From Escherichia phage KarlSchell_Bas89: DNA of 64,000 bases. The translations under genes and the position numbers were made by a program. Location: the sequence record PQ850613.1, one strand, 5' to 3'. The stretch's first letter is position 1, and the number at the start of each line of letters is the position of its first letter. Under the pieces are notes generated by a model that was not told where the DNA came from, did no database searches, and worked only from the letters and a program-made list of their open reading frames with translations. Positions 2,180-29,246 of the stretch are shown here, in pieces.

Positions 2180-5100
2180 ATGGCGCTGTATCCAATAAAA
2201 TCATTAGGGGCTATCGGTGTTATTGCTGATCAGGCACCAACTGATTTAGCACCTAACGCTTTCACCAACGCTATGAATGCTCGGTTTGTTGAGCAGAGAG
2301 TTTTTAAGACGGGGGGCAATGCCCCTCTTTCTTACGTGGAAGAAGACAAAGATCTGACCCCACTCTCTTTTGTCTCCATGCCTTTCGATTATTATAGCGC
2401 AGGAAATAGCTTCCTTGTAGTAGGTACAGATAAGAAGTTATATAAACTGACAGATGAAAGCTTAACCGATATCAGTCGTAAAGTTGCTACGGTAACTAAG
2501 AAAGCTTCTGCTATCATAAAAATTTATCCAGTGGTCTCAAGGATTGTTCCTAAAGAGAGCACTATCACAATGAACTTTAACCAGACAAAAGAGTTAGAAG
2601 TTCAGGTTTTTCCAGAGGATGCTAATAATGCCAATCTGACTTGGGAAGTAAGCAACCCCTCTTATGCCAGTATTGCAGTAAATCCTACAGATTCTAAAAA
2701 AGCCACCCTCACTACATTGTCTACAGAAGGAACACTATCCATTACTGTTTCTACTGAAGACGAATCTGTGACAGCTCAAATCTCTGTTAACATCGTTGAT
2801 GGTGATACCGGTATCTTCTTGAGCCAAGACACAATCACAATTCGAAGAGGTGGTACAACAACTCTTACTGCTATCTCAGGTAAGACTCCTATCACTTGGG
2901 TTAGTAGCAACGGTGGTGCTTTGTCTGTGACACCTAATGCCAATACACTAACTGCTGTTCTTAATGCTATAGGAGAAGGAACTTTTACTGTTACAGCTGA
3001 TAACGGTTCTAAGTCTGCTACATGTACGGTTAATGTGATACCTCAGATTGATTCTATTTCTTTGAGTCAGACAGATGTTCAGATGGATAGAGGAACTCAG
3101 TATGTTCTGACTGCGACAGTCAACCCTGCTGATGCTCCTAATAAAGCAATCACTTGGACTTCTTCTAATCCGAATATTGCTACAGTATCAGGGACAAGCA
3201 CAGAAGCTACAATTACTGGACTTCTGGCTGGGTTTACAGAGATTACAGCAGTAACAGAGGAAGGTAGTCGTTCAGCTGTTTGTACTGTTCGTGTCAACCT
3301 AGCAGGTAGAATGCTAAATACCAGAAGCCTAGCGATGGCTGCTAGTGCATCTCTAGTAGAAGAGTTCAAAGAGGAAGAAGAACCAGTTGTACAGAATGAA
3401 GAAATTGTTTACTTTATGTCTGACTCTATGGGAATTGATACCTCCGGAATGGCTGAAGGCAACAACTTCTTTGACTACTCTAACGTATTCGACATGGAAG
3501 GTTTTGCTCGTGCTGCGGAGAACTCAAGAGCTGCTCCTCTGACCAATGTGACACTAGATATTGTTGAAGCTTCTCTAGACGTAGGTGAAGAAATTGTCAT
3601 AACTGCTACAGCAGCTCCAGAAGGGGATTACTCCTACCAGTGGGTTGTTGATAAAAGTGGTTATGTTTCTACTACCTCTACAACTGGAAGATCTTTGAAA
3701 CTAACAGCTGTTCGTAAAGGTGAGATTAAAGTTACATGTACGGCGAGTCAGATGACTCAAAGAGACTACGACGCTTTTGATGATTACCCTTGGTATCATG
3801 CAGTAATCTCTAACTGTGCAGTAGCGACAACTCACTATGAAACTCCTCAGGTTAAAGAATTCGAATCTGAATACTTTACAGACCTTCCGGGATGGGGTGA
3901 ACAGACAGTTGTTGATGGTGACGGAAACCCTTCTGTTCGTAAGTTTAACTGGAAGTGCGAAAGAGTTAGAGCTTTTAACAACAGGCTATTTGCTCTGAAT
4001 ATGAGAGAGTCTAACGCCTCTGGTGTTACCACTCATTATCCTTTACGTCTTCGCTGGTCTAACTTTGCGAATGAGAACAAGGCTCCTACTTTGTGGGATG
4101 ATTATGCTTACGACCGACTGACAACTTCTGATCTTTCAGCGAATATTGTTGGACAGACTGAAGCTCTTGAGAATGGTTATGCAGGATATATTGATCTGGC
4201 TGACTCTAACGGAAGTTTGATTGATGTTCTCCCTTTGAAAGATTACTTATTTGTTTACACCGAGTTTGAAACCTACATTGGTTCTCCTACCAATAACACA
4301 TACCAGCCTCTGATGTTTAAGAAGCTGTTTAACGATTCAGGTATTCTTGCTCCTGAGTGTGTGGTTGAAGTGGAGGGTGGTCACTTTGTTGTAACACAGA
4401 ACGATGTGATTCTTCATAACGGTGCATCTAAGAAATCTATTGCATCTAATCGTGTCAAGAACATGCTCATTAATGAAGTGTGTTTGGTAAATCCTCTAGC
4501 TACTAGAGTTCACTTGCATCAAGATAAGAAAGAAGTTTGGGTCATGTATGTTGGGCCGGGAGAGCCGAAAGAGAGTTTTGCTTGTACAAAGGCTGCGGTC
4601 TGGAATTACGAGTTTGACACTTGGTCTTTCCGTACTATCCCTTATGCTCAATGTATTGGTCTTGTTGATCCTCCGGTTCTCGAAAGAGGTCCAGTGTGGA
4701 CTGACTTCCAAACTATCACTTGGGATGACCCTGCTATCGATAAACTGGTGTGGAGAAAAGATGCAACTAACTTCCGTCAGAGAATTACTATCGTAGGCTC
4801 TTTCTTAAGAGGTTTCTATCAAGTAGATGTTGGTGCTTTGGATTATTTCTACGATAGAGCTAATGACAGAGTAATAGAACGTCCTCTGGAAATGAGGTTA
4901 GAGAGAACGGGGATTGATTTTGATAACGTCACTAACGAATGGAATCAAAAACATATCAACCGATTCAGACCTCAGACTACAGGTTCTGGTACGTATATCT
5001 TTGAAGCTGGAGGTAGTCAATTCTCTAATGAGTATGGTCACAACCACACAACTAAGAGTTATACGATTGGAGTTGATAGGCACGTAGCTGTGAGACTGAA

Positions 5101-11796: not shown

Positions 11797-11805
11797 TAAT
11801 GTATA
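11797..11805 (+). promoter_or_regulatory. TAATGTATA promoter-like element
   Basis: Exact 9-mer 37 nt upstream of the 11842 start codon; same 9-mer and spacing upstream of a minus-strand gene at 29201. Confidence 0.45.
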
Positions 11806-19463: not shown

Positions 19464-20105
19464 TTAAGACCCTTGGAATTCTTCCTTGTCGAAGTGCTTC
19501 TCTACCACATACTCATACAGATCTTTATACTCTGCATAACGACGATAGAATGTCCCATGTGAGATGCCTAATTCTTTCTGAATGGAATCGTGAGGGATAC
19601 CTAAGAAGAGCATTGAGAACATGCTTGCAAGCTTCTGTGTATCCATTGTATCACTCAAATCTTGGAAGAAGTAGAAGATACGAGACTCCATGAAAGGGTC
19701 CCCAACTGAGTCATGCTTATTAACTGCATATTCCAGAGGGCCTTCTGAGTAAATGTCAGGGTTGTTAAACATATCTGCTTCTGGAATAGCATAGATACGT
19801 CGATCACCAACTGTCTGTCGATTGGAACGGATAGACCAGATGATATTCTTCACACGATAAGTCATGTGCTCAATCTCTACTTCACCTTCTAGTAGAAGTT
19901 CTTCTTGCTTGGAGTAGATGAAACGCCAAACATTAAGCAACACCTCTTGAGCTACATCCTCTGCTTCATGATAGTCACGAATGTCGTACATAAAGAATTT
20001 GTGAACCACTTTCCAGTTCACCTTATAGAACTCATCGAAGGTTGGGAAGTATTTGATTGGAATACCGTGAATACGATACCGAGTAGGTGTTGTTTTCTTA
20101 GCCAC
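19464..20105 (-). CDS. phage-encoded sigma factor (ECF-like)
   Basis: Region-2-like [17 protein letters not shown] and region-4-like [28 protein letters not shown]. Confidence 0.7.
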
Positions 20106-20892: not shown

Positions 20893-21633
20893 TTAGAATG
20901 GAGATTCGTCTTCTTCAAAAGTAGACTCAGGCTCACGATCAATAGTAGGGATAGAAGCAACCGGCTCTTTCTGCTCGTTCTCAGAAGCCTTAGTGACTTC
21001 ACGACCAGCGAGAGGAATGTTCTTAGCGTCATTAGCTTGGGTAAGCAGGTTACGCTGGAATGGGAAGATTACCTGATAAGCAGCTACGTTATCATCTGTT
21101 TCAGCATACGGTTCGAAGAAGACCAGAGGACTGCGAGCAGCAGCAACAGCTTCACGATACTTGGTAGGAATCGGAGTAATCTGTTTGATAGAGTTCTTAA
21201 CTTCACCAGCTTTGTTGGTGTAAGAGTTGATTAGAACGTTTACAGGCTGACCTAACAGCATTTCTTTAAACCAAGCCAAATCACCTTTCAGTGCTTGGAT
21301 GCTAGGGTCAACCATCTTAATTAGGTTGAGAATACCAGAGTTCTTAGCTCGTGGGTTTACATCGAAGCTCTTAAACTGACATGCAGGGCGCGGGTCAAGA
21401 GCATTGCCTTCAGAGTCCTTACCGGTTGCATCAACACCAATCAGCTCAAACGCCAAGTCCATACGGAAAGCTGGGTTCTTAGGAGTAACTGCTTTAGTCT
21501 TAGGGTCAACCCAAGGGTCACGATTGTGAACACCAAGACCAACAACACGAACGATACGAGCTTCGTACTCACCATCAGGGATTACGTCGTAGTTGGATTT
21601 ACGGGAAACGGACATAGTTGGGATAGAAGACAT
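20893..21633 (-). CDS. single-stranded DNA-binding protein (T7 gp2.5-like)
   Basis: Acidic C-terminal tail ending EEDESPF; position in replication module. Confidence 0.55.
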   Translation of the reverse strand: MSSIPTMSVSRKSNYDVIPDGEYEARIVRVVGLGVHNRDPWVDPKTKAVTPKNPAFRMDLAFELIGVDATGKDSEGNALDPRPACQFKSFDVNPRAKNSGILNLIKMVDPSIQALKGDLAWFKEMLLGQPVNVLINSYTNKAGEVKNSIKQITPIPTKYREAVAAARSPLVFFEPYAETDDNVAAYQVIFPFQRNLLTQANDAKNIPLAGREVTKASENEQKEPVASIPTIDREPESTFEEDESPF

Positions 21634-21680
21634 ATTTTAATTTCCTTATTTAATTTAAGATTGTTGCTCACTTTGAGCGG

Positions 21681-21699
21681 TTATGTATAGTATACATTA
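21681..21699. promoter_or_regulatory. near-palindromic TTATGTATA-g-TATACATTA element (back-to-back promoter-like 9-mers)
   Basis: Minus-strand TAATGTATA about 58 nt upstream of SSB start; one-mismatch copy on plus strand. Confidence 0.4.
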
Positions 21700-21762
21700 C
21701 ACCTATACCGATAAGGGTGCTATATAGTATAAGCAGTAGTGGTAGTAGATATTGACTACTAG

Positions 21763-21771
21763 TAATGTATA
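21763..21771 (+). promoter_or_regulatory. TAATGTATA promoter-like element facing an ORF-less region
   Basis: Exact 9-mer; downstream 280 nt has hairpins but no plus-strand ORF. Confidence 0.35.
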
Positions 21772-22048
21772 TATTGTATAGATGATAATTCTATTGCAGG
21801 CTTGTATATTGGGCAATTCTCAGAATCCCTTGCAAGTACCGAAGGGCAGGAGACACCTGCGAGATAAAAATAGAGAATTAAGGAATCCTTGATTTAGGTT
21901 GTAGGGACTCCTAGGGACTTTGATTCTCTATTTAAAAGAAATATTAATTACTTACTACCTAAATAGTTAACTAACTTACTTAAAACCTTTTCAATAAGAA
22001 TTGCTAAAAGGATAATTCCTAAGAAAGCTAATAAGAGAAAGGCATAAG

Positions 22049-22300
22049 TTACCATTCCATCATTCCTTTTAATCTAGATTCTTCTACTATTCGCTGATAG
22101 AGTAAGTTAGACTCAGCTTGATCTTTTAACATTTTACTGTATTGATCTCTGAGACTATCTTTATAAACAACAGGTGGTTTAAATAGTGATGATACTTTGT
22201 TCTTTTCTTCTTTCATCAAAAGTCTTCCTAATCTCTTGCAGAGATACAGCTTTAAAGTTGATTTGTTCCATCGAGGTACAGAAGTATCTCCAATCATCAA
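22049..22300 (-). CDS. hypothetical protein
   Basis: ORF, overlaps 3' end of next gene in another frame. Confidence 0.25.
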   Translation of the reverse strand: MMIGDTSVPRWNKSTLKLYLCKRLGRLLMKEEKNKVSSLFKPPVVYKDSLRDQYSKMLKDQAESNLLYQRIVEESRLKGMMEW

Positions 22301-22685
22301 TCACATGATTGTGAGTATGAGCATAGATGTTGAACTTCCCTCTCATTTCATCAGCGTGAATGGGAATGTGAGTCACCCAAAACTCTTTGTACTTGAAGTC
22401 ACCTGATACAGTTCTGAACACTTTCATAATCTGTGGTAACAAATCCAGTCTGTCATGATTCCCTAAGACAAGATGCTTCTCGCCTTTAATCTCATAGATG
22501 ATATCCAGTGCATATGGTTCAAACACCCAATCACCAGTGAAGAAAGTCTTATCTCGTTTAGTCACATGGTCAAACGCTGAAAGAACTGCTTTATCGTGCT
22601 CTTCAATACTACCAAACTGTTTACGAAACTTGCAGATATTACGATGACCTAAGTGACCATCTCCTGCGAAATATACTTCAGCCAT
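22179..22685 (-). CDS. metallophosphoesterase (calcineurin-like)
   Basis: GDGHLGH, GDWV, LGNHD, AHTHNH motifs. Confidence 0.7.
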   Translation of the reverse strand: MAEVYFAGDGHLGHRNICKFRKQFGSIEEHDKAVLSAFDHVTKRDKTFFTGDWVFEPYALDIIYEIKGEKHLVLGNHDRLDLLPQIMKVFRTVSGDFKYKEFWVTHIPIHADEMRGKFNIYAHTHNHVIDDWRYFCTSMEQINFKAVSLQEIRKTFDERRKEQSIITI

Positions 22686-29237: not shown

Positions 29238-29246
29238 TATACATTA
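29238..29246 (-). promoter_or_regulatory. TAATGTATA promoter-like element (minus strand)
   Basis: Exact 9-mer on minus strand 37 nt upstream of 29201 start. Confidence 0.45.

Follow-up and report, generated by a model that had tools for sequence, protein, structure and literature searches.

A candidate non-coding RNA gene behind a predicted phage sigma-factor promoter in phiEco32-like coliphages

The locus

We analysed 64,000 nucleotides (nt) of Escherichia phage KarlSchell_Bas89 (PQ850613.1; this whole stretch is referred to as the window) and focus here on a gap at 21634-21947 in which a conserved segment appears to encode a structured non-coding RNA, read from the plus strand behind a predicted promoter for the phage's own sigma factor. 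Judged by its sequence, the window is from an EP335/phiEco32-like coliphage of the Gordonclarkvirinae: the 2 kb around the gap are 99.9% identical to Escherichia phage EP335 (Gordonclarkvirinae, Nieuwekanaalvirus), with 98 related records, and ~84% identical to phiEco32, SU10, NJ01 and some 90 other coliphages. The genes that flank the gap all lie on the minus strand. A first-pass annotation, made from the letters of the window, had taken 21640-22048 as intergenic; this holds for the true gap but not for the right ~100 bp, which belong to a small gene, ORF37.1. Every motif that it described is present where it had been placed. The features on which the argument turns are as follows.

20893-21633, minus strand: gene for a 246-aa protein (EP335 ORF36), homolog of phiEco32 gp40
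21699-21691, minus strand: -10-like element TAATGTATA of a P40-type middle promoter, matching a listed SU10 promoter and invariant in all relatives
21741-21771, plus strand: predicted gp36-dependent promoter, recognized by its composite motif, contact bases, and conservation
21778-21935, plus strand: predicted non-coding RNA of ~155-160 nt (type A), with its 3' end assumed at or just after hairpin H4
21948-22055, minus strand: ORF37.1, 35 aa, annotated in the EP335 RefSeq record (PHROG match, E = 4e-15)

A predicted gp36-type promoter on the plus strand

The plus-strand promoter is composed of a -35-like element, GGTAGTAGATA (21741-21751), a 12-nt variable spacer, and AATGTATA (21764-21771, positions -14 to -7), the last lying within a plus-strand copy of TAATGTATA at 21763-21771. 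Exact copies of this 9-mer number four in the 64 kb (11797+, 21691-, 21763+, 29238-), two of them in this gap; with one mismatch allowed, the 9-mer is not enriched in the window (22 found versus 19.2 expected). The composite GGTAGTAGATA-N12-AATGTATA occurs twice at zero mismatches where 0.03 copies are expected, at 21741-21771 on the plus strand and at 32919-32889 on the minus strand. The second copy is the homolog of the phiEco32 promoter P68:

32889-32919, minus strand: homolog of P68, holding the second and last copy of the composite in the window; SU10 P68 reads 'ttGGTAGTAGATAtgataactctcaAATGTATAta'

The two remaining exact 9-mers are also homologs of known promoters, the one at 29238-29246 (minus strand) of the promoter between SU10 CDS56 and CDS57 (CDS, coding sequence) and the one at 11797-11805 (plus strand) of the late promoter between SU10 CDS23 and CDS24. 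Among these three homologs, only P68 shares the upstream element GGTAGTAGATA.

A cryogenic electron microscopy (cryo-EM) study of the phiEco32 sigma factor gp36 provides the numbering that we use, in which AATGTA spans -14 to -9 (PMC12276001). In that structure, the N-terminal domain of gp36 reads -14A, -13A, -12T and -11G and the C-terminal domain reads -37G and -34A; mutation of these bases compromises or abolishes transcription (PMC12276001). When -14 is placed at 21764, all six contact bases are present, with -37 at 21741 (G) and -34 at 21744 (A), and +1 falls on A21778. The window also encodes the matching sigma factor:

19464-20105, minus strand: phage sigma factor, gp36 homolog, in an open reading frame (ORF) of 213 aa (phrog_1740 match, E = 9e-46)

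This protein is 83% identical to phiEco32 gp36 and keeps 10/10 of the residues that contact the promoter (E79, H80, Y83, R84, W90, S91, S94, N95, Y186, and R187). In the EP335 RefSeq record the same gene (ORF32; called shorter than the 213-aa ORF, at locus 2665-3192) is labelled only as a hypothetical protein.

To follow the region through evolution, we gathered 32 distinct versions of it from INPHARED, IMG/VR, metagenomes, and Logan contigs; individual loci are cited by L numbers where they need to be told apart. The -35 element reads GGTAGT(A/G) in 32/32 versions, and the -10 element reads AATGTATA in 27, AATGAATA in three, AATGTATT in one and AATATATA in one. The spacer between them is 11-12 nt long and hypervariable, unrelated in sequence from group to group. 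Near-invariant elements around a free spacer are the classical signature of a working promoter. Every trait of the gp36-promoter family that can be read from sequence was found here: the AATGTA core, -37G and -34A, a cognate sigma factor, and conserved elements with a free spacer.

The closest known counterpart is P68 of phiEco32, which has the identical composite GGTAGTAGATA-N12-AATGTATA, the same -37G and -34A, AATG at -14 to -11, and a sigma factor with the same contacts (PMC12276001). The two differ in what lies downstream; P68 heads a long operon of protein genes, whereas the promoter described here opposes the gene cluster and is followed by ~155 nt of conserved non-coding sequence.

The second promoter in the gap, on the minus strand, has been listed before. 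Table S2 of the SU10 genome describes 'aagcgTAATGTATActatacataaccgctcaaagagagcaa, between CDS37 and CDS38' as a middle promoter (36247), and this string is the minus-strand reading of 21699-21660 in the window. The motif tAATGTAtA lies upstream of phiEco32 genes 6, 13, 26, 40, 58, and 68, in agreement with the gp36 promoters found experimentally. Given the SU10 entry and the presence of gene 40 in this list, the minus-strand TAATGTATA is, by homology, the counterpart of phiEco32 promoter P40, driving the gene for the 246-aa protein, a probable single-stranded-DNA-binding protein (SSB; see below). Its predicted transcription start site (TSS), at ~21684, yields a 51-nt leader (21684-21634) with a hairpin, GCUCA-AAG-UGAGC (plus-strand coordinates 21666-21678). 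The base at -37 of P40 is A, unlike the G of the plus-strand promoter.

On sequence grounds, then, the gap holds two divergent promoters for the phage-encoded sigma factor, of which the plus-strand one is a predicted promoter of the P68 type; the two predicted TSSs stand back to back, 94 bp apart. The first-pass annotation had suggested divergent promoters in the form of the two halves of a palindrome. Back-to-back gp36-type promoters are indeed supported by the comparisons, but the partners are not the palindrome halves. In a subgroup of the phages (L015 (ES17) at 482-625, L006, L026-L030), an insertion of ~150 bp with inverted repeats of its own separates the divergent promoters; ES17 annotates a 47-aa CDS in it.

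Structure of the predicted RNA

Conservation runs from the promoter at 21741 to ~21938 and stops abruptly after a long hairpin, H4; beyond this block the relatives differ or lack ORF37.1. The parts of the predicted RNA are, from 5' to 3':

21778-21794, plus strand: H1, 5'-terminal hairpin AUAGA/UCUAU, beginning with the predicted +1; invariant UGCA comes next (21795-21798)
21800-21837, plus strand: H2, the variable middle module (type A here), swapped for unrelated hairpin modules (types B, C, D) in other phages
21838-21846, plus strand: purine-rich linker ACCGAAGGG, probably single-stranded
21846-21860, plus strand: H3, hairpin GCAGG-AGACA-CCUGC, mostly invariant, with A/C at one loop position
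21868-21933, plus strand: H4, a 66-nt hairpin built of a 16-bp outer stem (two of its pairs G·U), the inner helix UCCU/GGGA, and an apex

The most informative of these is H1, in which the first five nucleotides (+1 to +5) pair with the five that precede UGCA. Seven arm haplotypes exist among the 32 versions, and all are fully paired: AUAGA/UCUAU, AUAGC/GCUAU, AUAGC/GUUAU, AUAGU/ACUAU, AGAGU/ACUCU, ACAUC/GAUGU, and AUCUC/GAGGU. Double changes affect 4/5 pairs, and when the arms are re-dealt at random only 9/20000 shuffles match this full pairing. Because some of these pairs are G·U, H1 is paired in 32/32 versions when read as the plus strand and in only 17/32 when read as the minus strand. The hairpin begins at the predicted +1 in 31/32 sequences; that it begins exactly at a start site predicted independently supports both the start site and the reading of the transcript as a stable RNA. 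Over the whole alignment, 99% of the cells that make up the proposed pairs are paired, and the observed covariation score was reached by 0/500 shuffles.

The middle of the RNA is modular. H2 exists in at least four unrelated versions, each folding into a hairpin, which are found in different combinations with H1 types and flanking genes; in L055, the type C hairpin keeps its pairing through two double changes (read by eye). The linker that follows contains GAAGGG in all four module types. The first-pass annotation had paired AAGGG with an upstream CCCTT (CCCTT...AAGGG, 21827-21846, plus strand), but the CCCTT arm occurs only in type A, and with GAAGGG kept in all four this hairpin is unsupported.

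The adjacent hairpin that it had proposed fared better. This is GCAGGAGACACCTGC, GCAGG/CCTGC at 21846-21860 on the plus strand, corresponding to H3, for which L055 carries a compensatory variant, GCUGG/CCAGC. An A-rich linker leads from H3 to H4. Within H4 lie the arms of the long inverted repeat described in the first pass, GAGAATTAAGG (21872-21882) and CTTTGATTCTC (21918-21928). As an RNA helix the repeat stands, though not as an imperfect one: if G·U pairs are counted, the plus strand forms 16 bp of uninterrupted helix. These U·G and G·U pairs are invariant, and on the minus strand they would turn into A·C mismatches. Variation in H4 is confined to the predicted internal loop and apex, and the inner helix survives indels on both sides (UCCU/GGGA, UCCCU/AGGGA, UCCU/AGGA). 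In the apex, two direct copies of TAGGGACT (21902-21919, plus strand) stand exactly 10 bp apart; in one haplotype group both copies lack a G (AGGACT twice), which could reflect a repeated binding motif or a linked haplotype.

The folding energies are in line with these strand preferences, with a minimum free energy (MFE) of -42.6 kcal/mol for the plus strand versus -35.2 for the minus strand. The G·U evidence led us to reject an RNA read from the minus strand. Some MFE folds contain a long-range helix, UUGCA/UGCGA, that encloses the middle module; we did not adopt it, as it conflicts with H3 and is weakened in L055, and it may represent an alternative conformer.

H4 is a possible bidirectional terminator. 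Read on the minus strand, the hairpin runs into an invariant U5 (plus-strand coordinates 21866-21870), and in every relative it comes right behind the upstream gene. Our terminator scan did not report H4; the base of its stem is AU-rich, and the tails are UAUUUAAAA on the plus strand and invariant UUUUU on the minus strand.

Conservation and distribution of the predicted RNA

The RNA element is present in 98/98 INPHARED relatives, and >100 related E. coli phages share its second half almost unchanged. Comparing the window with phages whose SSB gene is 81-82% identical, the 3' domain of the RNA (91 nt) is 96-100% identical, while the downstream 400 nt in the same phages are 52-83% identical. 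Even metagenomic relatives with 70-73% identity in the SSB protein have a nearly unchanged 3' domain. In more distant phages, at 61-67% protein identity (L008, L052-L054), and in the Grimontviridae (7-11, GAP52, J3S), the corresponding intergenic regions are short, lack the element, and add no covariation.

We saw no sign that this conservation reflects a protein. The first pass had noted no ORF on the plus strand; a mechanical ORF of 36 aa does exist at 21782-21892, but none is conserved, the ATG of this one being CTG in relatives. The 3' domain has stops in all frames and indels of 1-2 nt, and we rejected a coding reading. We likewise found no known RNA family at the locus: Rfam 15 gave no match in 21775-21940 even at E <= 10 and none in six variant loci at E <= 1, and a scan for tRNA and tmRNA found nothing there. 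(The window's sole tRNA, which is also its sole Rfam match at gathering score, is an unrelated tRNA-Arg with anticodon TCT at 53287-53363, minus strand.) The locus RNA thus belongs to no described family, though phage-encoded non-coding RNA as a general kind is known. In the 98 deposited relatives, no RNA or regulatory feature is annotated on the conserved segment; one record has a hypothetical-protein CDS there.

Searches for the element outside these phages were negative. A 211-nt query gave no blastn match to E. coli genomes at E <= 10, and an exact-pattern scan of GTDB genome contigs found none, so that these searches revealed no origin from the host or a prophage. Elsewhere in the window, a search for repeats and complementarity recovered only the promoter elements. 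Two observations led us to consider the RNA as a sponge for CsrA: it has A(R)GGA motifs, and in L056 (58% protein identity) a gene at 1-47, ~1.5 kb upstream of the SSB-like gene, carries a CsrA-family domain (PF02599). We set this idea aside, as the window has no CsrA homolog and the motifs number only ~4.

How strong is the case for an RNA gene

Taken together, these comparisons make it fairly probable that a gp36-driven, plus-strand gene for a non-coding RNA, previously unannotated, exists at this locus. The first-pass annotation had raised a small structured RNA from ~21775 and had named folding and covariation in related phages as a check; the comparative evidence supports an ORF-less structured transcript with a predicted +1 at 21778, and in that check H1 covaries, H3 has its compensatory variant and the inner helix of H4 survives indels.

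Several observations weigh against this conclusion or limit it. In L030 the -10 element is the divergent AATATATA. Covariation is solid for H1 only, that of H3 resting on one variant, and most pairs of H4 never vary and so are uninformative either way. The fold z-scores of single sequences are modest, at ~-2. The poor U-tract after H4 on the plus strand (UAUUUAAAA) leaves the 3' end of the RNA uncertain. One relative, L057 (68% identity), keeps the divergent promoter and has different, AT-rich DNA and no RNA behind it, so the promoter appears to be older than the RNA. The evidence gathered offers no explanation for the invariance of the 3' domain, and in a comparison of the RNA with 114 phage translation-start regions using RNAduplex, the best matches were no better than those of shuffled queries. 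Among the papers searched, we found no transcriptome of a Gordonclarkvirinae phage. As to novelty, the plus-strand promoter is not among the six listed for phiEco32, and it may feature in the original phiEco32 promoter papers.

Alternative explanations

The same promoter could serve replication rather than an RNA gene, the locus being an origin activated or primed by transcription next to the SSB gene, with the TAGGGACT repeats as protein-binding sites. Several features are suggestive: the promoter opposes every neighbouring gene, and no gene follows it; the locus lies in the replication module, beside a probable SSB with a weak match to a 'replication initiation' family of NCBIfam; the direct repeats are spaced by one helical turn; and AT-rich DNA follows H4, as it follows the promoter of L057, where there is no RNA. 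Promoter-dependent origins of this sort include the primary origin of T7 (phi1.1A/B) and oriF and oriG of T4, and the RNA II primer of ColE1 needs a defined RNA fold. Like the T7 and T4 origins, the locus has a phage-specific promoter in a replication module without a gene behind it; unlike them, it has no unwinding element directly behind the promoter and instead a protective hairpin at the 5' terminus of the transcript. What is transcribed is a series of stable hairpins that would not melt easily. The variable AT-rich stretch begins only beyond 21934; in most phages it is coding sequence, and a third lack it. The cumulative GC skew turns not at the locus but at ~16 kb and ~62 kb, where gene orientation changes. 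The covariation and the G·U pairs point to selection on the fold of a plus-strand RNA with a hairpin at its +1, which suits a stable RNA better than a primer. We consider an origin unlikely.

Equally unlikely, in our estimate, is that the RNA's sole job is to pair through H4 with the 3' end of the ORF37.1 mRNA and so to control the peptide or its operon, as one half of a cis-antisense pair resembling a type I toxin-antitoxin (TA) system. ORF37.1 encodes one hydrophobic helix with a basic tail and is translationally coupled to the preceding ORF. In the window, ORF37.1 and the predicted RNA converge, and 14 nt separate its stop codon from the base of H4; a small hydrophobic peptide gene of this kind ends 14-17 nt from the hairpin here and in about two thirds of the carrier phages. 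Its slot is occupied by unrelated peptides of the same kind in L058 and L057, and the convergent layout with a shared, bidirectional hairpin resembles that of txpA/RatA and the par locus. However, ORF37.1 occurs in about two thirds of the RNA-carrying phages. The others, about one third, keep the invariant RNA and have no such peptide: ECBP2, Paul, EK010, NC-B, XT32, Bas86, Bas88, L045, L049, and L055. Furthermore, the RNA does not overlap the coding sequence, and because a cis-antisense pair is complementary by construction, this arrangement gives no reason for 91 nt to be nearly invariant.

The locus could also act as DNA architecture only, the plus-strand promoter stimulating or insulating P40, the hairpin terminating the upstream operon, and the transcript being a by-product. 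The back-to-back TSSs, 94 bp apart, would fit promoter coupling or a block to read-through, and the invariant U5 on the minus strand, right after the upstream gene in all relatives, would fit a terminator; both L057 and L044 keep a promoter and differ in the DNA downstream. But neither the compensatory changes seen in H1, H2, and H3 nor an identity of 96-100% that extends to the loops would be expected of a by-product. The phage's clear terminator (20870-20853; see below) is a short, GC-rich hairpin unlike H4, and H4 is weaker on the minus strand, where it has A·C mismatches. We regard this explanation as quite improbable.

The palindrome proposed in the first-pass annotation, TTATGTATA (21681-21689), g (21690), TATACATTA (21691-21699), symmetric at 17/19 positions in the window, is very unlikely to serve a dimeric DNA-binding protein as operator, or to act as two opposed promoters, as only its minus-strand half is conserved and the symmetry is gone in the group of ECBP2, SU7 and EK010, where the plus-strand half reads TTGGTATAC or TTTGTATAC. 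The feature in question is:

21681-21689, plus strand: palindrome half TTATGTATA, with T at -14 and no GGTA at -37

Without -14A and without a -35-like element, this half is probably not a promoter. Partial symmetry is to be expected anyway, GTATAC within the promoter motif being a palindrome of its own; with TTATGTATA unconserved and lacking -14A, the palindrome is best seen as a side effect of a near-palindromic promoter core, not as an operator.

Comparison with known counter-transcripts

In its layout, the predicted RNA most resembles the counter-transcripts of the lambda OOP type and the antisense RNAs of type I TA systems that overlap at their 3' ends. Lambda OOP, like sar of P22, is a short RNA transcribed against an early/replication operon. 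The RNA predicted here is likewise a small, ORF-less counter-transcript in an early/replication block, ending at a hairpin and potentially complementary to the 3' part of a convergent mRNA. It differs from OOP in that it would depend on a phage sigma factor and not on sigma-70, is twice as long, overlaps no CDS in the window, and is modular with an invariant 3' domain; we found no relation to OOP or sar in sequence or in Rfam. With the type I systems (txpA/RatA, bsrG/SR4, and RNA I/RNA II of par) it shares a small hydrophobic peptide gene that converges with the RNA across a common hairpin. Unlike in those systems, about a third of the phages with the RNA lack the peptide, and the phage is virulent. 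Small ORF-less transcripts of lytic phages have also been seen by RNA sequencing in PA5oct and phiR1-37 (PMC7318152, PMC4848604); those differ in sequence and host, and the RNA predicted here has a defined promoter class and exceptional conservation.

Proposed mechanism and function

We propose that both promoters of the gap serve the same sigma factor. The P40-type promoter would start near 21684, express the probable SSB gene alone and end at the terminator at 20870-20853. In the other direction, the gp36 holoenzyme, with the activator gp79 as at P68, would transcribe from ~21778 in the middle/late phase. The product would be an RNA of ~155-160 nt, and of ~185-190 nt in ECBP2 or ES17, that carries, in order, H1, H2, the GAAGGG linker, H3, the A-rich linker, and H4; weak termination, or trimming as far as H4, may set its 3' end. 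Such an RNA should be stable, since the terminal hairpins should protect both ends.

H4 would probably also form the 3' end, or terminator structure, of the convergent minus-strand operon, in which case the plus-strand RNA and the convergent mRNA would be fully complementary over ~70 nt. A secondary effect in cis is likely: once gp36 is active, complementarity of H4 to the 3' end of the operon mRNA would allow a duplex to form and these transcripts to decay. Neither termination nor cis-antisense pairing accounts for 91 frozen nucleotides, loops included, and we therefore take the invariant 3' domain, as a guess, to be a binding surface for a conserved partner, a protein of the host or the phage or else an RNA. 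Tentatively, the RNA may be regulatory: a conserved factor of the host, or a protein of the phage, may dock on the 91-nt 3' domain or be decoyed by it, with the middle hairpin tuning this activity. What the partner might be is again a guess; examples are an RNA-binding regulator, a nuclease, or a defence sensor.

phiEco32 is a model for transcription by a phage-encoded sigma factor, and the gp36 regulon has been described as six promoters, all of them before protein genes. If real, the promoter described here would be the seventh, with a full consensus, and through its non-coding RNA would add an RNA layer to the gp36 programme. The 3' half of this RNA is the most conserved stretch of its neighbourhood across Kuravirus, Suseptimavirus, and Nieuwekanaalvirus. 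Many of the phages that carry it are therapy candidates, and the conserved segment is unannotated as RNA or regulatory sequence in all 98 deposited genomes. Should the docking or decoy reading be true, it would define a new class of functional RNA in a well-studied family of model phages and in therapeutic coliphages.

Neighbouring genes

The remaining features near the gap are two:

20870-20853, minus strand: canonical, GC-rich intrinsic terminator AGCCACC-TTCG-GGTGGCT + T5, directly 3' of the SSB-like gene
22179-22685, minus strand: phosphoesterase gene

The terminator directly after the SSB-like gene defines a transcription unit of one gene, from P40 to the terminator. The product of this gene, the 246-aa homolog of gp40, is probably a single-stranded-DNA-binding protein with an oligonucleotide/oligosaccharide-binding (OB) fold, the evidence being weak but consistent. 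Its C-terminus is an acidic tail (...EEDESPF), and its AlphaFold2 model has a mean confidence score (pLDDT) of 82.7. A Foldseek search of the Protein Data Bank with this model returned as top matches only OB-fold proteins (SSB, PriB, RPA, and PrgE), at weak E values of 1e-3 to 0.1. One record names the protein SSB, and the match to the NCBIfam 'replication initiation' family reaches 24 bits (cutoff 75). In some relatives, inserted genes for HNH homing endonucleases directly adjoin the SSB-like gene (L002 (SU10) at 1594-2007 and L047 at 2270-2692), and these insertions suggest that the neighbourhood is a hotspot for mobile endonucleases and mosaic exchange.

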